A DNA stretch of 64,000 bases from an uncultured Dehalococcoidia bacterium (GTDB lineage Bacteria; Chloroflexota; Dehalococcoidia; UBA2247; RBG-13-53-26), in NCBI GenBank assembly GCA_964492335.1, contig CAZBJX010000006.1, positions 1,963 through 65,962 on the forward strand, read 5' to 3'. The translations under genes were made by a program, and so were the position numbers. The notes under the pieces were generated by a model, which saw only the letters and a list, made by a program, of their open reading frames with translations, had not been told where the DNA came from and ran no database searches. Positions 12,194 through 57,266 of this stretch are shown here, piece after piece (the first letter of the stretch is position 1; the number at the start of each line of letters is the position of its first letter).

Positions 12194-12994
12194 TCAGCCC
12201 AGCCAGCGTTTCCGCCTCTTGTAGTGCTTGATGTTCCGGTAGCTCTTGGTCTCTCCCCGTGCGCTGAGACCCATGTAGAACTCGCGGATGTCGGCATTGC
12301 CTCTCAGCTTCTCGGCAGTGTCATCGAGGACGATCCGGCCGCTCTCCATGACGTAGCCGTGATGCGCCAGGGACAGCGCCGCCCTGGCATTCTGCTCCAC
12401 CAGGAGTATGGAGACGCCCTCCTCCTCATTGATCCTCCTGAGTATGCGGAAGATCTCATCCACCAGCAGGGGCGCCAGACCCAGGGAGGCCTCGTCCACC
12501 AGCATCAGCTTGGGGCTGGCCATCAGGGCCCGGCCGACGACCAGCATCTGCTGCTCGCCGCCGGACAGGTACCCGCTGGTCTGCCGCTGCATCTGCTTGA
12601 GGACGGGGAAGTACTGGTAGACCATGTCCAGGTTCCTGTTCAGCCGGCCCCCGCCTCCCGAGATATAGGCGCCCGCCCTGAGGTTCTCGTCCACCGTGAG
12701 GTGCTCCAGGACCAGCCTCCCCTCCATGATCTGGATGATCCCCATGCGGGCGATCTTCTGCGCGTCCCCGTTCTCGATGCGGCGGCCCTCGAACTCGATG
12801 CTGCCGTCGGTGACCCTTCCCTCCTCGGCCCGCAGGAGACCGGAGACGGCCTTCAAGGTGGTGCTCTTGCCCGCGCCGTTGTTGCCTAGAAGCGCGACGA
12901 CGCTGCCCTTCTCCACCTCGAGCGAGACGCCCCTGAGGACAAGGATGACGCCCAGGTACTTCACTTCAACGTTGGTTAGCTGCAGCAGTGGCAT
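12194..12994 (-). CDS. livF: Branched-chain amino acid / Liv-type ABC transporter ATP-binding protein (LivF-like)
   Basis: Walker A GNNGAGKST, signature LSGGEQQML, Walker B LMLVDEASLGL. Confidence 0.85.
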   Translation of the reverse strand: MPLLQLTNVEVKYLGVILVLRGVSLEVEKGSVVALLGNNGAGKSTTLKAVSGLLRAEEGRVTDGSIEFEGRRIENGDAQKIARMGIIQIMEGRLVLEHLTVDENLRAGAYISGGGGRLNRNLDMVYQYFPVLKQMQRQTSGYLSGGEQQMLVVGRALMASPKLMLVDEASLGLAPLLVDEIFRILRRINEEEGVSILLVEQNARAALSLAHHGYVMESGRIVLDDTAEKLRGNADIREFYMGLSARGETKSYRNIKHYKRRKRWLG

Positions 12995-13007
12995 ATGTCG
13001 TATCTCC

Positions 13008-13805
13008 TTAGGCCGGTACGGCCGCCTCGTCGCCCAGGTAGGCTTTGATGACCACCGGGTCGCTCTTGACCTGGGCAGGGGTGCCCTCGGCGATCTTTCG
13101 TCCGAAGTCCAGGACCATGATCCTGTCGGTGATGTCCATCACCACCCCCATATCGTGCTCGATGATGATGACGGTCATCCCCTTCTCCTCCTGGACATCG
13201 AGTATGTAGCGGGCCATGTCCTCCTTCTCCTCCGCGTTCATGCCGGCCATGGGCTCATCCAGGAGCAGCAGCGTCGGCTCCTGGGCCAGGGCACGGCCCA
13301 GGTCGATGCGCTTGCGGATGCCGTACGGCAGGGTGCCCACCACGGCCTTCCTGTGGCGCTCCAGCTCCAGGAAGTCGATGATGTCCTCCACCACCGCCCG
13401 CTCCCTGACATCCTGGCGGTGCGGCCGGCCGTAGTAGAAGGCCTGCTCTACCCAGGTGGAAGTGAAGCGGAAATGCCGTGCCGCCATGAGGTTGTCCACC
13501 ACGGTCAGCCCGGTGTAAAGCTGAATGTTCTGGAAGGTCCGGCTGATGCCCATCCTGGCTATCCTGTCGGGGCGCAGCCTGGTTATCCGGCTCCCCTTGA
13601 AGTAGATCTCCCCACTCTGCGGACGGTAGAAGCCGTTGATGCAATTGAGGGTGCTGGTTTTGCCGGCGCCGTTGGGCCCGATGATGCCGAAGACCTCGCC
13701 CTTGAGGACCTCACACGAAATGCCCTGGAGGGCCTTCACCCCTCCGAAGCTCAGGTGCACATCCTCGAACCGTATTTCGGCTTCTCTGCTTGGCGAACTC
13801 GACAT
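13008..13805 (-). CDS. livG: Liv-type ABC transporter ATP-binding protein (LivG-like); start at MSSSPSREAEIRF (ATG 13803-13805)
   Basis: Walker A GPNGAGKTS, Walker B LLLLDEPMAGM, C-terminal LivG extension. SD AAGGAG lies 7 nt before the internal ATG. Confidence 0.85.
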   Translation of the reverse strand: MSSSPSREAEIRFEDVHLSFGGVKALQGISCEVLKGEVFGIIGPNGAGKTSTLNCINGFYRPQSGEIYFKGSRITRLRPDRIARMGISRTFQNIQLYTGLTVVDNLMAARHFRFTSTWVEQAFYYGRPHRQDVRERAVVEDIIDFLELERHRKAVVGTLPYGIRKRIDLGRALAQEPTLLLLDEPMAGMNAEEKEDMARYILDVQEEKGMTVIIIEHDMGVVMDITDRIMVLDFGRKIAEGTPAQVKSDPVVIKAYLGDEAAVPA

Positions 13806-33773: not shown

Positions 33774-34760
33774 GTGACAAAAGAGCCATCTGTATCCAAG
33801 CGCATTGATCTCAGTGACCTGGACCTGCGGCTCATCAGGCTGCTGGAGTCCGACTCGCGGAGCACCCAGTCGGGGCTGGCGGCCAAGCTGGGCATCAGCC
33901 GCCCCACGGTGGGCGCCGTCATGCAGAAGCTGACGGAGGCCCGGGTGATACGGCCGGTGTGCCTGGCAGACCACGTGGCCCTGGGGTACACGGACAGCGT
34001 GGTCTTCGGCATCAACACCATGCCGGGGAAGATGCTCAAGGTGGCCGGGGCCCTGGCATCCATGGCCCCCGTTCACTGGGTCGCCGTCTGCGCCGGGCCC
34101 TTCGACATCATGGCCTGGGGCCTCTTCAAGGGGAGGGGCGAGGTGCTGGAGTTCCTGACAGGCGAGCTGGGCAGGGTGCGGGGCATGTCGCGGTTCGAGA
34201 CGGTGATGTGCCAGGAGGTCAAGATATCCCCGGCGCTCCTCTCCGCGGACGAGGGCTACCGGCCGGGCGGGAGGCAGGTCCCGCTGGACCGGCTGGACGT
34301 GGCCCTCATCGGCACGCTGCAGCGGGACAGCCAGCAGACCGCCGCCGACCTGGCCCTGAAGCTGCGCACCAGCAAGCCCACCATCCTGCGCCGGATGAAG
34401 CGGCTCCATGACGAGGGCGTCATCAGGCTGGTGACCATGGTCGATCCCCGGGCCCTGGGATACAGCCTGGTGGTCTCCTCGGGCCTCAAGGTGGCCCCCG
34501 ACAGGATCGACGAGGTGGTGGAGGCGGTGGGGAACCACCGCAGCGTGCACAGTGTGGCGCTGTGCACCGGGCGGTACGACGTGCTGGCCTGGATGATCTT
34601 CCGGGACCGGCCGGAGATGATGGACGTGCTGAGCGGCCAGCTGGGCAAGATCCATGGCATCAGGAGCATGGAGACCGTCACCTGTCTGAAGATAGTGAAG
34701 GCTTCGTTCATGTACGTGAACTGGCAAGGGGATCTCTGGGAGAGTCTGAAGGAGGAGTGA
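33774..34760 (+). CDS. Tandem (duplicated) Lrp/AsnC-family transcriptional regulator, paralog 2 (GTG start)
   Basis: Two AsnC-type halves (DLRLIRLLESDSRSTQSGLAAKLGISRPTVGAVMQKL...; DVALIGTLQRDSQQTAADLALKLRTSKPTILRRMKRL...). Confidence 0.8.
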   Translation: MTKEPSVSKRIDLSDLDLRLIRLLESDSRSTQSGLAAKLGISRPTVGAVMQKLTEARVIRPVCLADHVALGYTDSVVFGINTMPGKMLKVAGALASMAPVHWVAVCAGPFDIMAWGLFKGRGEVLEFLTGELGRVRGMSRFETVMCQEVKISPALLSADEGYRPGGRQVPLDRLDVALIGTLQRDSQQTAADLALKLRTSKPTILRRMKRLHDEGVIRLVTMVDPRALGYSLVVSSGLKVAPDRIDEVVEAVGNHRSVHSVALCTGRYDVLAWMIFRDRPEMMDVLSGQLGKIHGIRSMETVTCLKIVKASFMYVNWQGDLWESLKEE

Positions 34761-36737: not shown

Positions 36738-36788
36738 CTTCTGCGCCCCGGGGTGTTGCGCAGCGAGCGCGTCCGGTGGCCCGCCGCC

Positions 36789-37892
36789 CTAGCCGGCGGG
36801 AGCTTGGCCCAGGGTGACCTCGGCGGTCCTGGTGGTCTGCCCCCGCATGAAGGTGGTCACGACCTTGTCGCCGGGAGAGCGGTCCTGAACAGCCGCCGCC
36901 AAGTCCTGGTTGGTGGCGATGTCCGTGTCGCCCAGCCGGACGATGACATCGAAGCGTATGAGGCCCGCCTCATGCGCCGGGCTGCCCGGGACCACCAGCC
37001 ACACCATCGCCCCCGAGTCCACCGGCAGGCGATACTGGGCTTGAATGGCGGCGGTGACGGTGTAGGTGCTCACCCCCATCCAGGCCGAGGACTCGTGCCC
37101 CCTCGTCACCAGTGAATGGATGGTGTCGATGGCGGTGTTGGTGCTTATGGCGAACCCGATATTCTCGGCGCCCGAGGCGATGGCGGTGTTGATGCCCACC
37201 ACCTGGCCGGCCATGTTCACCAGGGGGCCGCCGCTGTTGCCCGAGTTGATGGCGGCGTCGGTCTGGATGAGGTCGTCAAGCACCGCGCCGTTGGACTGCC
37301 CGATGGAGCGGCCCAGGTAGCTGATCACACCCTCAGTCCACGTGGGGCCGCCGGGCAGGGCCAGGGCATTGCCTACTGCCACCACATTTTCGAGCAGGGT
37401 CAGGTTCCCCAGGGAGTCGCTCAGGAAATGGGCATAGGGCAGGTCGGAGTCAGACCGGATCTGGACCACTGCCAGGTCCGTGGCCTCGTCCCCGGCCCAC
37501 TTGACGGCCTGGAGACTGCGGCCGTCGTTCAAGGTGACGGTGAGGCTGTTGGCATCCGCCACCACGTGGTTGTTGGTGACCACGATGCCCTCAGGATCGA
37601 TGATGATGCCGCTGGCGGCCCCGCTGGATGGGACTGCCCGGTAGAACATGTCGTAGGCCACGCCCTCCGTGGTGATGGAGACCACCGACGGCGCCAGCCG
37701 CGCCACCAGGTCAGTCTTGGAAAGGGCCGTTCCCACCTGGCCATCCACGTAGACGGGGCTCCAGTCGGCATTGATGGGCGTGTTGGCGGCATTGGCCGCG
37801 TTGTCGGGCGAGCCGCCCAGGCCGCAGGCCAGGCCGGCCCCCACCAGGCCCAGCACCAGAAGTGCTATCAGGACGTACTTTGCTCTCCGCAT
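36789..37892 (-). CDS. htrA: HtrA/DegP-family trypsin-like serine protease with PDZ domain (lipoprotein-type signal)
   Basis: Signal + LACGLGG lipobox-like. Catalytic H (VTNNHVV), D, and GNSGGPL Ser motif. C-terminal PDZ. Confidence 0.85.
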   Translation of the reverse strand: MRRAKYVLIALLVLGLVGAGLACGLGGSPDNAANAANTPINADWSPVYVDGQVGTALSKTDLVARLAPSVVSITTEGVAYDMFYRAVPSSGAASGIIIDPEGIVVTNNHVVADANSLTVTLNDGRSLQAVKWAGDEATDLAVVQIRSDSDLPYAHFLSDSLGNLTLLENVVAVGNALALPGGPTWTEGVISYLGRSIGQSNGAVLDDLIQTDAAINSGNSGGPLVNMAGQVVGINTAIASGAENIGFAISTNTAIDTIHSLVTRGHESSAWMGVSTYTVTAAIQAQYRLPVDSGAMVWLVVPGSPAHEAGLIRFDVIVRLGDTDIATNQDLAAAVQDRSPGDKVVTTFMRGQTTRTAEVTLGQAPAG

Positions 37893-38031
37893 GTCTCCTC
37901 CCTCTTCCAGAAAAGGGTCCTATCCAACAGGCTAGGCCAATTCCGCCTCCGTCGCAAGTTGGCCCGGCCGCATTTCTTCACCGCCTGGCGGTGGATCCCG
38001 CATCGCAGCTCATGTCATCGGAGTCGTCTGG

Positions 38032-38289
38032 TCATCGCCGGCGGTCTCGGCCGCTGTCAGGGCGGGGGGCGATGGTCACCTTGCCGTCCTCCATCTCCAG
38101 GACCATGTCCGCCCTGATAGCTATCTCCGGGGCGTGGGTGGCCACGATGACAGTCTTCCCGTCCCTGGTAAGGCTGTACAGGAGGTCCACGATGCGTCGG
38201 CTGGTCTTGGAGTCCAGGTTGCCGGTGGGCTCATCCCCCAGGACAATGGACGGGTCGTTGGCCAGGGCCCGGGCGATGGCCACCCGCTG
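38032..38289 (-). pseudogene. Truncated ABC-transporter ATP-binding protein remnant (MacB/LolD/FtsE type): retains only the end of the signature motif, Walker B and the H-loop; Walker A and Q-loop are missing
   Basis: Immediately after the permease TAG stop, the same frame continues [26 protein letters not shown]...IVATHAPE, i.e. the distal part of [14 protein letters not shown], Walker B and H-loop. No upstream N-terminal portion exists in any frame. Confidence 0.6.
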
Positions 38290-39615
38290 CTATTCATTGC
38301 GCAGTACCTCCGCGGGTCTGACTCGGGCGATGTACCAGGCGGGCAGCACGCTGGCTAGCACCGCCAGGAGGGCGGCCACGGCCAGGGCCCAGAGGAAGAT
38401 GGTCGGCGAGACCGTCACGTTGAGCCCGGCGACCCTCCCGCCCACCTCGGCGAACATGCCGCCCGGCCCGCCGGGGCCTCCTCCCGTGCCCGGTCCGGCG
38501 GCGCCCGTCGAGCTGCCGCCGGTCATCAGGTCAGCCACCTTCTGGGCCAGCGGATAGGTGATCAGGGCGCCGATGACGGCCCCCACCACGCTCACCACCA
38601 GCGTCTCCAGACTGAACTGCAGCCCGATACGCCAGTTTGAGGCCCCGATGGCCTTCATGATGCCGATCTCCTTCACCCTCTGCCGGATCATCAGGACCAC
38701 GGAGAAGAGGACCACCACCCCCGCCACGACGAAGGCCACTATCATGCCTATGTTGCTGGCGCTCTCGGTCGCGTCCACCGATCCGCCGATCTGCCGGTAC
38801 ATATCCTCGGCTGTGGTGACGTCGGCGGTCTCCTCATCGAAGACCTCCCGGATGCCCTGGACCACCGCTTCCACGTTGTCCACGTCGTCGGCCACGACGA
38901 TGACCGAGGTGACGCCGTCCAGATCGAATACCCGCTCCGCCGCCTGGATCGGCATGACAATGGTGTTGTTGGCGAAGACCGTGCCGCTGTCGTAGATGCC
39001 GACCACCACAAGCTCCGTGCCCTCCATATCCACCGTGGAGCCCACCGTCAGGCTGTTGGCCTCAGCCAGCGCCTGGCCGACCACCATTTCGTCCGCGTAG
39101 TCCGAGGTGAGGTAGCTGCCCTCCACCAGTTCGAACGTGCCGCCGCCCATCAGCGTCGGGCTGTCGGCAGCGGCACTGACTCCCATGACCTGGATGCCCA
39201 TGGTGAACCGGCCCGATGGAGGGGCAGGCATGCCGGAGGAGTCGCTTCCCTTGGGCCTCTGGCCGGGGGGCGTCCCTATGGTGCCCGCATCCACCCCTGA
39301 CTCCAGGCTGTCGCCGGTATACTGCGTCTGCACGGTGGCCTGCACCGAGGCCACGTGCTCAATGCCGCTCAACTGGTCCACGCTATCCGCATCCAGGGGT
39401 TCGCCGCCGCCCATGCCTCCGAAGGACCCCGCCGACCGTACGGTGATCTCGGTGCCGATCTGGCCCCCTATCTTCCCCAGTTCGCTCCGGGTGGCGGCGT
39501 GAACGGTGGCCATTGTCAGGGCCAGCCCGATACACGCGGCCAGCAGCACCACCATCAGGATGGTGCGCAACGGGCTGCGAACCAGGTTGCGCAGTGACCT
39601 CAACAGCAGACTCAT
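38290..39615 (-). CDS. FtsX-like ABC transporter permease (MacB-type, large periplasmic domain); start trimmed to MSLLLRSLRNLVRSPLRT
   Basis: N-terminal TM, ~250-aa extracytoplasmic domain, three C-terminal TM helices with the FtsX signature (MIRQRVKEIGIMKAIGASN). Confidence 0.8.
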   Translation of the reverse strand: MSLLLRSLRNLVRSPLRTILMVVLLAACIGLALTMATVHAATRSELGKIGGQIGTEITVRSAGSFGGMGGGEPLDADSVDQLSGIEHVASVQATVQTQYTGDSLESGVDAGTIGTPPGQRPKGSDSSGMPAPPSGRFTMGIQVMGVSAAADSPTLMGGGTFELVEGSYLTSDYADEMVVGQALAEANSLTVGSTVDMEGTELVVVGIYDSGTVFANNTIVMPIQAAERVFDLDGVTSVIVVADDVDNVEAVVQGIREVFDEETADVTTAEDMYRQIGGSVDATESASNIGMIVAFVVAGVVVLFSVVLMIRQRVKEIGIMKAIGASNWRIGLQFSLETLVVSVVGAVIGALITYPLAQKVADLMTGGSSTGAAGPGTGGGPGGPGGMFAEVGGRVAGLNVTVSPTIFLWALAVAALLAVLASVLPAWYIARVRPAEVLRNE

Positions 39616-39870
39616 GCCTTGGACCTTTCTGTCCCGCCTGACATTGCCCTGGGTGTCCCCTCTTGACGTTCTCCCCATGGCTGAAGCCAAGGGGCTTGCG
39701 GCCTTCGTTCTCCTGGTCAATGCGGGACGACGGGCGTGCCTTCTTCTCCCTCGCTCCAGACTATAGCATCCTGCTTCACCTTCTTCCTCCGCAGCATTGT
39801 GCCTGGTCATAATGGAAGGCTAGCACGCCGCAGGTGAAGTGGCGGCAAAGGAGGTCGGCCTGCCGGCACG

Positions 39871-40986
39871 TCAGGGCCGGGGGATGAGCGGCAGGGTCAC
39901 CCGGAAGGTGCTCCCGGCGCCGAGGGTGCTCTCCACGGAGACGGCGCCGCCGTGCTCCTCAACGATCTTCTTGACTATGGCCAGGCCCAGGCCGCTGCCT
40001 CCCTGGGCCCGGGACCGGGACTTGTCGACGCGGTAGAAGCGGTCGAAAACGTGCTGCCTGTCGCTGGCCGAGATGCCCACGCCGGTGTCCCTGATCTCGA
40101 GGACCGCGCTGGATCCCTCGGCCCGGGCCGAGATCTCGATCATCCCTTCGGGGCGGTTGTACTTGATGGCGTTGTCCACCAGGTTGGTGATAACCTGCTT
40201 GATGGCGATGGCGTCGCCTCTGACCTGGAGGCCCTGCGGGACGCCGGCGGCCTCCAGGCTGACCCGGGCGGCAGCGGCCGCGGGCTGGGACTCTGCCACC
40301 ACCTCGTCAACGAGCGATGCCAGGTCCAGCTCCGCCCACCTGATCTGCGGCTGGCTCCCCTGCGACAGCAGCAGCAGCCCCTGGCTGAGGAAATCGAGCC
40401 GTTCCAGGCTGCGCTTGACCACCCCCGTCGTGAGCCGGTAGTCCTCCACCGTGGCGTCCTGGTCCATCTCCAACACCTCGATGTTGGTCTGGGCGGTGGC
40501 AATGGGCGTCTTCAGCTCGTGCGAGGCATCCTGGACGAACTGCTTCTGGGACTCGAAGGCGCTGTCCAGCCGCTCCAGCATGTCGTCGAAGGTGTCCGCC
40601 AGGCGCTTCATCTCATCCTGCGGCCCCTGGCGGTTGATTCTCTCTTTGAGGTTGGTGTGGGAAATGCGTGCCGCCAGGGAGGAAACGCGATCCACAGGCT
40701 CCAGCATTATGCCCGAGATGATGTAGCCGGCCACCGCGCCCAGGACCAGGATGGCGCCAACGGCAATATAGGAGTAGGTGCGCAGGTCGGACAGGCTGCG
40801 TTCTCTCTCTTCCAGGCGGGGATCGCTGCCGGGGAAGTTGCCCGGTCCCGGCGGCTCACGCCCGGCCATGGCCAGGTTGATGGCGAACAGCAGCGCCAGC
40901 AAGAGGACCACCAGCATCCCTGAGTACCACAGAGTGAGCCGGAAGCGGATCGTCTTGAAGAAAGCGGGGATTTGCATGCTCTTCAC
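39871..40986 (-). CDS. Sensor histidine kinase (2 TM + HAMP + HisKA + HATPase_c)
   Basis: H-box [14 protein letters not shown]; N/G1/G2 boxes ([27 protein letters not shown]). Overlaps the upstream regulator gene by 4 nt. Confidence 0.85.
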
Positions 40987-41648
40987 CCGATCATGTAGCC
41001 TTTCCCCTTAATGGTCGCGATCAGGCCCTCCCCGCCGGCGGCGTCCAGCTTCTTGCGCAGGTTGTTGATGTGCACCTTGATCGACTGGGTGAAGAGGTTG
41101 GCATCCTCGCTCCAGACGTGCTCCAGCAGGTCTTCCTGGCTCACCACGCAGCCGGCGTGGCGCATCAGGTACTCCAGTATCCCGAACTCCTTGGCGGTGA
41201 GGGGCACCAGGTTGTCCCCGAGCGACACCCGGTGCGCATTGGGGTCGAGCACCAGGTCGCCGACCCTCAGTATGACCTTGCGCTGTTCCCCTTCGCGGCG
41301 CAGGATGGCCCTCACCCGGGCCAGCAGCTCGGGGAAGTGGAACGGCTTGAGCAGGTAGTCGTCAGCGCCCTGGTCCAGCCCCTCCACGCGGTCGGTCACC
41401 GCCGTGCGGGCCGTGAGCATCAGTATCCCGACGGATGACCCGGTGCCCCGGATCCTGCGGCAGACCTCCACCCCGTCGACCTTCGGCAGGTTCAGGTCAA
41501 GGACCAGGAGATCGTATTCGTTGATCTCGGCCACCCGCAGGGCCTCCTCTCCGTCGTAGACCACGTCGACGGCGTAGCCCTGCCGCCCCAGCCCCCTGGC
41601 CAGGGCGTCGGCCAGGTCCTTCTCGTCCTCCACCACCAGGATGCGCAT
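40983..41648 (-). CDS. OmpR/PhoB-family response regulator
   Basis: MRILVVEDEKDLADAL...DLLVLDLNLP receiver; C-terminal winged-helix LTAKEFGILEYLM. Confidence 0.9.
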   Translation of the reverse strand: MRILVVEDEKDLADALARGLGRQGYAVDVVYDGEEALRVAEINEYDLLVLDLNLPKVDGVEVCRRIRGTGSSVGILMLTARTAVTDRVEGLDQGADDYLLKPFHFPELLARVRAILRREGEQRKVILRVGDLVLDPNAHRVSLGDNLVPLTAKEFGILEYLMRHAGCVVSQEDLLEHVWSEDANLFTQSIKVHINNLRKKLDAAGGEGLIATIKGKGYMIG

Positions 41649-42607: not shown

Positions 42608-43576
42608 TCACTTCCTGCCATCCCCGGCGGGCGGCTGCGCCCCGAAGCCCCAGTCGGCCCCGAGGTTGTCCTTGGTCACCTTCATCAGCACCATCACCTC
42701 ATGGCTGACCACCCCGGGCACCGTGCCGAGGTACTCCCTGACGAACCTGGACAGGTCCTCCCGGGTCTTGAGGAAGATGGTGAAGAGCAGATCGAAGGAC
42801 CCGGTGGTAATGACCACGTGGTGCGTCTCCGGCGATGCGGAGAGGGTGGCGGCGGCCTGGTCGATCATGCCCGGCCGCATGCTGAGGCCGATGTTGGCCC
42901 TGATGGTGTAGCCCAGGCGGACCGGGTCGGCCACGGCGATGACCTGCAGGACCTGGTCCTCGATCAGGCGCTCGATCCGCCGCCGGGCCGTGGCCTTGCT
43001 GCACCCGGCGGGGCCGGCCAGGCTGGTGTAGGCGCTGCGGGGGCTGGCGCGGAGCTGCCGCAGCAGGCGGTAGTCCAGCTCGTCGAGCCGCCGCCGGGGA
43101 GGCCTGCCCCCGCCGGCGGATATGCTCCTGTTGGCCAGCATGGAGAGAGAGAACTTGGCCACCTTGAGGCTGACCATGGTCTCGGCCCTGGTGATGTCCT
43201 TGATGGGCGCCAGGCTGGAGCTGACGAAATCCCACAGGTCCACCGTCTCCGGCAGGGACACCGAGGCGAAGATGTCGTAGCGCCCGGTGTGCATGGACAC
43301 GTGGTACACCTCGCGGATGTCCGCCAGCCGGCGGGCCACGGAATCGATCCGGCTGGGCGGCGCATTGATGGCCACCAGCAGCTGCCGGGTGTGGCCGATG
43401 GCCAGCGGGTCGACCAGCGTCAGGAAGCGGATGACCCTGTGCCGCTCCAGCCGCTCGAGCCGGTCGGCGATGGTGGACCAGCTCAGCCGCAGGTTGCCCG
43501 CCAGATCGGTGACGCTCTGCCGCCCGTCCCGCTCCAGCTCGGCGATGAGGCGCAGGTCAAGCTCGTCCAGTAGCAC
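42608..43576 (-). CDS. Tandem (duplicated) Lrp/AsnC-family transcriptional regulator, paralog 3
   Basis: Two AsnC-type halves (LDLRLIAELERDGRQSVTDLAGNLRLSWSTIADRLERL...; DYRLLRQLRASPRSAYTSLAGPAGCSKATARRRIERL...). Confidence 0.8.
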   Translation of the reverse strand: MLLDELDLRLIAELERDGRQSVTDLAGNLRLSWSTIADRLERLERHRVIRFLTLVDPLAIGHTRQLLVAINAPPSRIDSVARRLADIREVYHVSMHTGRYDIFASVSLPETVDLWDFVSSSLAPIKDITRAETMVSLKVAKFSLSMLANRSISAGGGRPPRRRLDELDYRLLRQLRASPRSAYTSLAGPAGCSKATARRRIERLIEDQVLQVIAVADPVRLGYTIRANIGLSMRPGMIDQAAATLSASPETHHVVITTGSFDLLFTIFLKTREDLSRFVREYLGTVPGVVSHEVMVLMKVTKDNLGADWGFGAQPPAGDGRK

Positions 43577-54614: not shown

Positions 54615-57266
54615 CTACGGCCCGCGGCGGCCGGCTGCGGACTTGTTGTCGGCCTTCCCGGCCGGCTTCTCTTCAGCCTCCCGGGCCTTCTCAAACATGA
54701 TGCCGTCATCCCCGGCGTCGATGGTCACCCGGTCGCCGTCCTTGAACGTGCCGTCCAGCACCTTGAAGGCCAGCGGGTCCAGCATGCGCCGCTGGATGGT
54801 CCGCTTCAGGGGCCTGGCCCCGTAGTTCGGGTCGAAGCCTTCGCTCACCAGGAACTCCCGGGCGGCGTCGGTCAGCTCCACCGTCATGTGGCGCTCCTCC
54901 AGCCTCCGCTGCAGGCCCCTCATCTGGATGTCGACGATCTGCATGATCTGGTCGCGGCTAAGGGTGTGGAAGATGATGATCTCGTCCACCCGGTTGAGGA
55001 ACTCCGGCCGGAAGTGCGAGCGCAGCTCCTCGGTGACGCGCTGGCGGACCTCGTCCTCGCGGTCCGGGCCCAGGTCGGTGAACCAGTGACTGCCCAGGTT
55101 GCTGGTCATGATGACCACGGTGTTCTTGAAATCGACGGTGCGGCCGTGGCCGTCGGTCAGCCGGCCGTCCTCCAGTATCTGCAGCAGGGTATTGAAGACA
55201 TCCGCGTGGGCCTTCTCGATCTCGTCGAAGAGCACCACGGAGTACGGGCGCCGCCGCACGGCCTCCGTAAGCTGCCCCCCCTCGTCGTAGCCGATGTACC
55301 CCGGCGGAGCGCCGATGAGCCGGGACACGGTATGCTTCTCCATGTACTCAGACATGTCCAGCCTTATCATGGCCTGCTCGTCGTCGAACAGGAACTCCGC
55401 CAGCGCCCGGGCCAGCTCCGTCTTGCCCACGCCCGTGGGGCCCAGGAAGATGAAGCTCCCCAGGGGGCGGTTGGGGTCCTGGAGCCCCGCCCTGGCGCGC
55501 CGGATGGCATTGCTCACGGCGCTCAGGGCCTCGTCCTGCCCCACCACGCGCTGGTGAAGGCGGTCCTCCATCGTCAGCAGCTTGTGGACCTCGCCCTCCA
55601 CCAGCTTGCTGACGGGGATGCCGGTCCAGTGGCTCAAGACCTCGGCGATGTCCTCTTCGTCCACCTCTTCCTTGAGCATCCTCTCGCCGTGGCCGGTGTC
55701 GGCCAGGCCGTCCTCCATTTCCTTCAGGCTCTTGATCAGATCCACCAGGCTGCCGTACTTGAGGCGGGCCGCCCTCTCCAGGTCTCCGGACTGCTCGGCC
55801 TGCGCCACTTCCACCTTGGCCTGCTCGATCTGCTCCTTGAGCCTCTGCATGCCGCCGATGGACTCCTTCTCCTGCTGCCACTGCGCCCGCAGGCGGTTGC
55901 CCCGCTCCTTCAGGTCGGCCAGCTCCTTGTCGATGTTGGCCAGCCTCTCCTTCGACGTGCTGTCGGTCTCCCTCATGAGCGCCTGTCGCTCGATCTCCAG
56001 CTGCATGGTGCGCCGCTGCACTTCGTCGAGATTGGCGGGCACGCTGTCGATCTCCATGCGCAGCCGGCTGGCCGCCTCGTCCACCAGGTCGATGGCCTTG
56101 TCCGGCAGGAAACGGTCGCTGATGTAGCGGTGGGACAGCACGGCGGCGGCCACCATGGCGGCGTCCTTGATGCGCACGCCGTGGTGCACCTCGTAGCGCT
56201 CCTTCAGGCCGCGCAGGATGCTGATGGTGTCCTCCACCGAGGGCTCCACCACCATCACCGGCTGGAAACGGCGCTCCAGGGCGGCATCCTTCTCGATGTG
56301 CTTGCGGTACTCGTTGAGAGTGGTGGCCCCCACGCAGTGCAGCTCCCCTCGGGCCAGCATGGGCTTAAGCATGTTGGAGGCGTCCATGGCGCCCTCGGCG
56401 GCGCCGGCGCCGATCACCGTGTGCAGCTCGTCGATGAAGAGGATGGTCCGGCCCTCGGACTCGGTGATCTCGCGGAGCACCGCCTTGAGCCTCTCCTCGA
56501 ACTCCCCCCGGTACTTGGTGCCGGCCACCATGGAGCCCAGGTCCATGGCCACCAGGCGCTTGTCCTTCAGCCCTTCGGGCACGTCCCCCTTCACGATGCG
56601 CTGGGCCAGCCCCTCGACGATGGCCGTCTTGCCCACGCCCGGCTCGCCGATGAGGACCGGGTTGTTCTTGGTGCGCCGCGACAGGACCTGGATCACGCGG
56701 CGGATCTCCTTGTCGCGCCCGATCACCGGGTCGAGCTTGCCGCGGCGGGCGATCTCCGTCAGGTCCCGGCCGTATTTCTCCAGGGCCTGGTACTTCCCCT
56801 CGGGGTTGAGGTCCGTCACCCGCTGGCCCCCGCGGATGGTAGTCAGCGCCTGGTAGATGCTGTCCCTGGTGACGCCGTGGCTGTCGAGCAGCCGGGTGGC
56901 CGGGCCCTTTTCGCCGTCGGCGACAATGGCCGTCAGCAGGTGCTCGGTGCTGACATAGTCGTCCCTGAGCCGCTCGGCTTCCTGCCGGGCGTTGTCCAGG
57001 GCCCTCTTCAAACGGGGGGACATGACCAGCTGCACCGGGCCGTATGCCTTCGGCTGCCGGTCCAGCTCGGCCTTCATCTGCTGCCTGACCTGCCGCAGGT
57101 CCACACCCAGCTTCAGCAGCAACTGCGGGACCACGCCGTCGGCCTGCTCCAGCAGGGCCGTCAGCAGGTGCTCCACGTCCAGCTGACTGTGATTGGCGTT
57201 CTCGGCGATCTGCTGGGCCGCCAGGATGGCCTCCTGGGCCTTCTCAGTGAACTTGTTCAGGTCCAT
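54615..57266 (-). CDS. clpB: ATP-dependent chaperone ClpB
   Basis: N-domain [18 protein letters not shown]. Two AAA+ modules ([15 protein letters not shown]; [15 protein letters not shown]). Long middle coiled-coil. 883 aa. Confidence 0.95.

Follow-up and report, generated by a model that had tools for sequence, protein, structure and literature searches.

What became of the ATPase of an ABC transporter whose permease gene, on a contig from an uncultured Dehalococcoidia bacterium, is directly followed by the C-terminal third of an ATPase gene? The window, by which we mean the whole 64,000-nucleotide stretch of DNA analyzed here, carries a full-length MacB-like permease on the minus strand, and immediately past its TAG stop codon (38290 to 38292) the permease frame resumes as an ATPase fragment. 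The first-pass annotation left open whether this arrangement reflects a deletion, an incorrect assembly, or a transporter that borrows its ATPase from elsewhere. With a probability of roughly 93%, the best explanation is that the fragment is what remains, at its 3' end, of the ATPase gene of a type VII transporter after a 454-bp deletion between short direct repeats.

The remnant and the genes around it

The locus comprises the following features:

36789 to 37892 (-), intact HtrA/DegP-type serine protease of 367 amino acids, PDZ domain included (Pfam, NCBIfam)
38032 to 38289 (-), ATPase remnant of 258 bp, 85 codons (38289 to 38035) plus a TGA stop codon (38032 to 38034)
38134 to 38136 (-), H-loop histidine within the remnant, in an ATH motif
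38212 to 38226 (-), D-loop TGNLD within the remnant
38230 to 38247 (-), Walker B motif IVLGDE within the remnant
38290 to 39615 (-), type VII ABC permease, 441 amino acids, with MacB periplasmic core and FtsX domains (Pfam, orthologue lengths)
39871 to 41648 (-), two-component pair, both genes full length (Pfam)
39871 to 40986 (-), HAMP-HisKA-HATPase histidine kinase of this pair (Pfam)
40983 to 41648 (-), OmpR-type response regulator of this pair (Pfam)

Profile matches bear out the earlier observation that the C-terminal part of an ATPase lies in frame beyond the permease stop codon. Residues 1 to 22 of the remnant align to positions 115 to 136/137 of the Pfam ABC_tran model, and NCBIfam alignments cover positions 148 to 219/221 of LolD, 144 to 213/214 of FtsE, and 151 to 225 of MacB, with DevA and YbbA models also matched (E values of 1e-20 to 1e-21 for LolD, FtsE, and MacB and of 1e-19 to 1e-21 for the five models together). 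With NCBIfam alignments reaching E values as low as 1e-21, the homology of the remnant to ABC ATPases lies far beyond chance. The fragment has the Walker B motif (hhhhDE), D-loop, and H-loop histidine expected of an ABC nucleotide-binding domain (NBD; PF00005) and contains no internal stop codons, and its scores fall below the thresholds set for whole proteins of these families (20.4 bits versus a cutoff of 25 for ABC_tran; 75.7 versus 307.75 for LolD).

What precedes these motifs in a working enzyme is gone. The Q-loop and signature motif (LSGGQ/E) are missing, and the end of the signature that had been read into the sequence is likewise absent, as the first residues are the Q-R that follow LSGGE. 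The first-pass annotation was right that no Walker A or Q-loop exists upstream: a six-frame motif scan recovered no Walker A (GxxGxGK[ST]) within 20 kb of the locus and no signature motif near it, and a tblastn search with an intact 239-amino-acid orthologue matched the locus at residues 145 to 228 alone. The remnant thus resembles members of the LolD/MacB-NBD/FtsE clade in covering the last third of their models, Walker B, D-loop, and H-loop included, but differs from them in the absence of Walker A, Q-loop, and LSGGE and in its broken native-start frame; judged by its motifs, it is a pseudogene fragment incapable of functioning as a member of this clade. Gene callers render it as an 83-amino-acid open reading frame (ORF) starting at GTG 38283. 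A promoter and terminator scan of positions 37700 to 40000 returned no match.

The permease ORF spans 506 codons (38290 to 39810, minus strand), in which MacB_PCD (PF12704; E value, 1.2e-11) occupies residues 86 to 322 and FtsX (PF02687; E value, 2e-17) residues 354 to 497. Its start is likely ATG 39615 rather than the upstream ATG 39810; orthologues are 430 to 444 amino acids long and cover the 441-amino-acid version end to end (100% coverage), and exactly this protein has also been called in other assemblies. The protein ends in AEVLRNE directly before the TAG, and this end, YIARVRPAEVLRNE, is the usual C terminus of the family. A periplasmic core between transmembrane helices (TM) 1 and 2 and a C-terminal FtsX three-TM bundle are both present at full length, as befits a type VII permease, and what the window lacks for a complete type VII system is the cognate ATPase, present only as a frameshifted C-terminal third. 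The permease scores below every NCBIfam cutoff, and its best matches among solved structures (5xu1_M, YtrF, MacB, LolF, and also FtsX) are all weak.

The MacB_PCD and FtsX domains are shared with the MacB-like four-TM permeases, including Streptococcus pneumoniae Spr0694-0695 (PDB 5xu1), Bacillus subtilis YtrEF (PDB 9o9x), LolC/E/F, and FtsX, although similarity to the characterized proteins is low and confined to the C-terminal half (E values of 5e-8 or higher). In the Spr0694-0695, YtrEF, LolC/E/F, and FtsX systems a separate ATPase gene is paired with the permease, as it is in the relatives of the window, whereas in the window itself the partner ATPase is destroyed. The intact system is a type VII (MacB-like) ABC transporter whose neighbors are two-component genes and htrA, and these family associations make an envelope-related role of the module plausible, as is the envelope-stress or peptide-detox label of the first-pass annotation. 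The lengths and order of the response regulator and histidine kinase agree with those in relatives, and htrA occupies the equivalent position downstream of the ATPase gene in all of them.

Intact loci in relatives and the extent of the loss

Homologues of the permease number in the hundreds in uncultured Chloroflexota and Dehalococcoidia, and we retrieved loci of relatives whose permeases have 82 to 98% identity to that of the window. Five of these (L001 to L004 and L013) share the gene order of the window, which runs AsnC, metallo-beta-lactamase, response regulator, histidine kinase, permease, ATPase, HtrA, old yellow enzyme (OYE), AsnC, and FAA hydrolase, with an ATPase of 225 to 237 amino acids directly after the permease. 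In L039 and L040 the ATPase has 239 amino acids and is followed by HtrA. The ATPase start codon overlaps the permease stop codon as ATGAATAG in L001 to L003, L005, and L013, where, according to the gene calls, the ATPase gene begins 8 nt ahead of the end of the permease gene. A lineage with 98% identity (L005 to L009) has a normal ATPase beginning MNSSGTVVTVEKL, and L039 and L040 yielded the complete 239-amino-acid protein of this lineage (P0257). Structure matches link the intact orthologue from L013 to LolD, MacB-NBD, MJ0796, YtrE, and YbbA (1e-47 to 1e-57), those to the Escherichia coli LolD and MacB NBD structures being 1e-56 to 1e-57. The copy in the window has, as is expected of a pseudogene, a syntenic intact counterpart in close relatives (L039, L040, L013, L001, and L004), and among the orthologous loci compared there was none in which the truncated architecture occurs as a conserved variant. 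Neither of the two outcomes that the first-pass annotation had named as refuting came about. These full-length genes in five syntenic relatives, together with the lack of exactly 454 bp that the closest intact allele retains and the 8-bp repeat at the edges of the gap, decide for the deletion that had been listed among the possibilities.

To locate the breakpoints, we aligned the intact allele L040 to the window by pairwise BLAST, which returned two blocks around the junction:

L040 positions 1 to 149, corresponding to window positions 38432 to 38284
L040 positions 592 to 1945, corresponding to window positions 38295 to 36942
38284 to 38291 (-), deletion junction, the surviving single copy of the 8-bp direct repeat AGCAGCGG

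Since the two blocks overlap by the repeat, the segment missing from the window is exactly 454 bp, or 151 codons plus 1 nt, and not the approximately 140 codons estimated before; the Walker A motif of the intact orthologue (GSSGSGKS) falls inside it. The octamer occurs at offsets 6 and 460 of the ATPase gene, 454 bp apart, the 5' copy covering codons 3 to 5 (S-S-G) and the 3' copy the Q-Q-R after LSGGE. The 3' copy reads AGCAGCGC in L040 but AGCAGCGG in the outgroups L001, L004, and L013, and given these outgroups the progenitor most likely carried a perfect 8-bp repeat, or one matching at 11 of 12 positions over GAAyAGCAGCGG. The 5' copy is confined to the lineage whose ATPase begins MNSSGT, farther relatives having MNSNGT or MSNNGT, so the substitution creating it was recent and shortly preceded the deletion; a recent codon change from MNSN to MNSS thereby produced the repeat that enabled the loss.

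An 8-bp match begins at 6e-5 of the position pairs in the reconstructed ATPase gene, and because both breakpoints coincide with such a rare pair, the junction points to replication slippage or another microhomology-mediated process. As in slipped-strand, RecA-independent deletions, a perfect 8-bp repeat stands at both edges and one copy is kept, and known microhomology deletions are also a few hundred base pairs long, frameshifting, and variable among closely related strains. Compared with known pseudogenes of this origin the present case shows nothing unusual. We also weighed programmed excision and a mobile element but rejected both, as the junction has the 8-bp repeat but no recombinase, inverted repeats, or inserted sequence.

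The effect of the deletion on coding can be read from three further features:

38307 to 38311 (-), GGAGG, putative ribosome-binding site of the lost ATPase gene, within the 3' end of the permease gene (read from the sequence)
38295 to 38297 (-), native ATPase start codon ATG, overlapping the permease stop codon in ATGAATAG (alignment with intact orthologues)
38121 to 38297 (-), 58-codon out-of-frame ORF from the native ATPase ATG, with its stop codon at 38121 to 38123 (ORF list)

The GGAGG lies 9 nt upstream of the ATPase ATG. As division of 454 by 3 leaves a remainder of 1 (454 = 3 x 151 + 1), this ATG now opens a nonsense frame; in the intact arrangement the ATPase is read one base out of step with the permease, and the remainder of 1 therefore places the remnant in the permease frame. 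The first-pass annotation had taken the arrangement for an in-frame fusion, of which the shared frame stands and the fusion does not: the native ATG survives out of frame, and the common frame is a coincidence of arithmetic. A functional ATPase is no longer encoded at the locus. In the course of events as we reconstruct it, an ancestral gene of approximately 720 bp, encoding 239 amino acids and with its ATG overlapping the permease stop codon, lost 454 bp between the AGCAGCGG copies at codons 3 to 5 and at the Q-Q-R after LSGGE, a loss that took out the signature motif along with Walker A and Q-loop and shifted the frame. Ribosomes initiating at the retained ribosome-binding site and ATG would then make a 58-residue nonsense peptide, and in carriers the transporter, its permease still a perfect ORF, would be inactive unless another ATPase substitutes.

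The deletion allele across assemblies and strains

If the join were spurious, the full ATPase gene would exist in the organism and 454 bp would have been lost through misassembly or through PCR or chimera jumping between the repeats; the window evidently comes from a metagenome-derived contig, and template switching in vitro can also leave short direct repeats at a junction. The same junction is nevertheless present in at least seven assemblies (Logan, ENA, and NCBI) from different runs, projects, and assemblers, SPAdes-type ENA assemblies among them, and the incorrect assembly suspected earlier does not withstand this recurrence. Over 11,430, 6,099, and 1,458 bp, respectively, Logan contigs of the runs SRR15734598, SRR15734601, and SRR15734604 match the window at 100% identity with the junction included, and Logan junction contigs are common to further samples. 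Logan assembles at k = 31 (PMC12424806), so an 8-bp repeat is unable to cause a false join in its De Bruijn graph, and the 31-mers across the junction must occur at least twice in the reads. Both the 83-amino-acid ORF and the junction recur in ENA assemblies ERZ28615095 and ERZ15184953 and in an NCBI contig bearing the exact proteins of the window, while the contigs L041 (ENA ERZ25038380) and L038 (NCBI GCA_046128295.1) have the same junction with one extra single-nucleotide polymorphism (SNP) each. These make three sequence variants, indicating that the deletion allele has been replicating and diverging in nature. An artifact of assembly or sequencing is thus extremely improbable, and the deletion allele is real and heritable. 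Scans for exact matches to the junction among contigs of GTDB species-representative genomes and JGI metagenomes returned no match. One Logan contig (L012, found in five samples) stops at position 38262, the last junction-specific 31-mer, which is expected if the assembly graph merges there with an intact allele bearing AGCAGCGG at the 3' repeat; the known intact allele, with AGCAGCGC, predicts a stop at 38254 instead, and we give this hint no weight as evidence.

The two alleles occur side by side. Low-coverage assembled contigs in ERZ25038380 represent an intact allele (NODE_27502; coverage, 2.7) and a deleted one (NODE_217423; coverage, 2.4), and because several linked SNPs separate them, they represent two co-occurring strains rather than a fresh polymorphism within one clone. 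Between the window and L040 there is 1 difference in the final 149 bp of the permease gene, and beyond the repeat there are 6 in the remnant. Across the remnant as a whole, 7 of 261 nt differ from the intact allele, including a synonymous CGC/CGG difference inside the repeat, and 82 of 85 residues are identical to the C terminus of P0257, the changes being I16V, T58I, and L75P and the other 4 nucleotide differences synonymous. The permease gene has diverged from the intact lineage by a similar margin (approximately 1.7%). This low divergence of the remnant and its freedom from internal stop codons suggest that the deletion is recent.

Two SNPs within the deletion clade fall in adjacent codons:

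L041, remnant residues Thr58 and Arg59
Window, remnant residues Ile58 and Arg59
L038, remnant residues Ile58 and Met59

The changes form a nested series, both are nonsynonymous, and both residues belong to an ATRAD motif that is invariant in five intact relatives. Outside the repeat, the ratio of nonsynonymous to synonymous differences between the remnant and the intact allele is 3:3, on small numbers. The substitutions at residues 58 and 59, two SNPs in all, hint faintly at a loss of constraint. We discarded a further sign of rapid evolution, the 81 to 82% amino acid identity of the remnant to distant relatives (versus approximately 90% among intact genes), as the intact P0257 shares most of the changes, which means that most of this low identity predates the deletion.

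Two candidate parallel truncations were also rejected. A protein search with the 85-amino-acid remnant returned only short fragments with 65 to 85% identity, P0246 (80 amino acids) and P0221 (133 amino acids) among them, and in L036 and L037 the corresponding ATPase genes proved to be full length and split by frameshifts, as are the histidine kinase and response regulator genes. The three contigs L004, L036, and L037 (ENA ERZ2503xxxx, "contig_N") share this condition, with an 89-amino-acid response regulator, the histidine kinase and OYE each in two pieces, and the ATPase called as 166 plus 80 or 133 plus 80 amino acids over full-length DNA, most likely owing to frameshift errors of long-read assembly. 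Contigs of this kind can mimic truncated ATPases in protein databases. An apparent secondary decay of the permease in L043, where the gene is split, is a scaffold gap of 10 N.

Fate of the transporter and neighboring observations

Whether the module is dead or rewired depends on the permease, which could still function with a MacB/LolD-type ATPase encoded elsewhere. Its ORF is complete, with 441 amino acids and 100% coverage of orthologues, the flanking histidine kinase, response regulator, and HtrA are intact, and relative to the 98% relative the permease has a dN/dS ratio of 0.22, though the greater part of this divergence may be older than the deletion. The deletion looks recent, however, and an intact permease ORF would be expected even without selection; in every intact relative examined, moreover, the cognate ATPase is translationally coupled to the permease. 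The intact paralogue that the first-pass annotation proposed looking for did not turn up in the 64-kb window, where no other MacB/LolD-type ATPase is encoded and the sole complete ABC ATPases are two adjoining LivG/LivF-like genes (12326 to 13757, minus strand; Walker A motifs GPNGAGKT and GNNGAGKS) with 26 to 28% identity to the lost protein. We therefore regard continued service with a borrowed ATPase as unlikely. A somewhat different view, which we hold to be a little less probable still, is that loss of the ATPase was itself selected, the transporter being costly or targeted, or that the orphan permease is kept with another ATPase. The presence of both alleles in one metagenome, the recurrence of the deletion in at least seven assemblies, and its SNP variants are compatible with a selected loss-of-function allele, and equally so with the simple coexistence of strains.

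The remnant might instead have been recruited to a new role, either as the 83-amino-acid protein translated by reinitiation at GTG 38283 or, through readthrough of the TAG, as a permease carrying an NBD tail. It does share the permease frame, beginning two codons past the permease stop, and it is reported as an ORF by gene callers, but the shared frame follows from the remainder of 454 divided by 3, no GGAGG-type ribosome-binding site precedes the GTG, and the strong site nearby serves the out-of-frame ATG. A fragment without Walker A, Q-loop, and signature cannot bind or hydrolyze ATP, the SNPs of the deletion clade are all nonsynonymous and affect residues invariant in intact orthologues, and no conserved family of short proteins was found, the other short matches being fragments at contig ends or from frameshifts. 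A new role for the remnant is accordingly very unlikely.

Taken as the product of a 454-bp deletion, the remnant is an ordinary recent pseudogene that varies among co-occurring strains; it advances no open question, and its main value is for annotation. The 83-amino-acid "ABC ATP-binding protein" should be flagged as a pseudogene fragment, and reconstructions of metabolism or transport in this Chloroflexota lineage should count the transporter as incomplete. The locus also provides a clean, base-resolved natural case of a deletion across 8 bp of microhomology.

Several features of the surrounding sequence are worth recording. Between the histidine kinase and permease genes lies a spacer of 255 bp (39616 to 39870) without an alignable counterpart in L001 or L004; the three Logan contigs from the deleted lineage all begin at 39719 and the five from the 98% lineage all begin at 39690, and the spacer appears to vary among strains and to interrupt assembly from short reads. 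L004 and L036 have an extra ORF of 111 to 147 amino acids in this spacer, with no Pfam match. Downstream, the 5' half of htrA differs from that of L039 and L040 by approximately 2% and the 3' half (36870 to 37285) by approximately 20% (about 410 nt with some 85 differences), whereas the next gene is again 99% identical, and the distance between htrA and that gene is approximately 700 bp in L039 versus approximately 34 bp in the window (36771 to 36805). The pattern at the 3' end of htrA looks like a recombination mosaic or an indel between strains.

Two regulators of approximately 325 amino acids (33774 to 34760, plus strand, and 42608 to 43576, minus strand) each consist of two tandem HTH_AsnC and AsnC_trans_reg modules, and these AsnC-type regulators flank the locus along with several genes for OYE-type flavoenzymes (Oxidored_FMN plus Pyr_redox_2). 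In relatives, a PFL-like glycyl-radical enzyme is encoded upstream of the locus. Farther away, a single minus-strand frame of the window (approximately 55440 to 56650) contains the AAA+ Walker A motifs GEPGVGKT and GPTGVGKT at a distance of about 1.2 kb, an arrangement resembling that of ClpB/ClpC-type chaperones.
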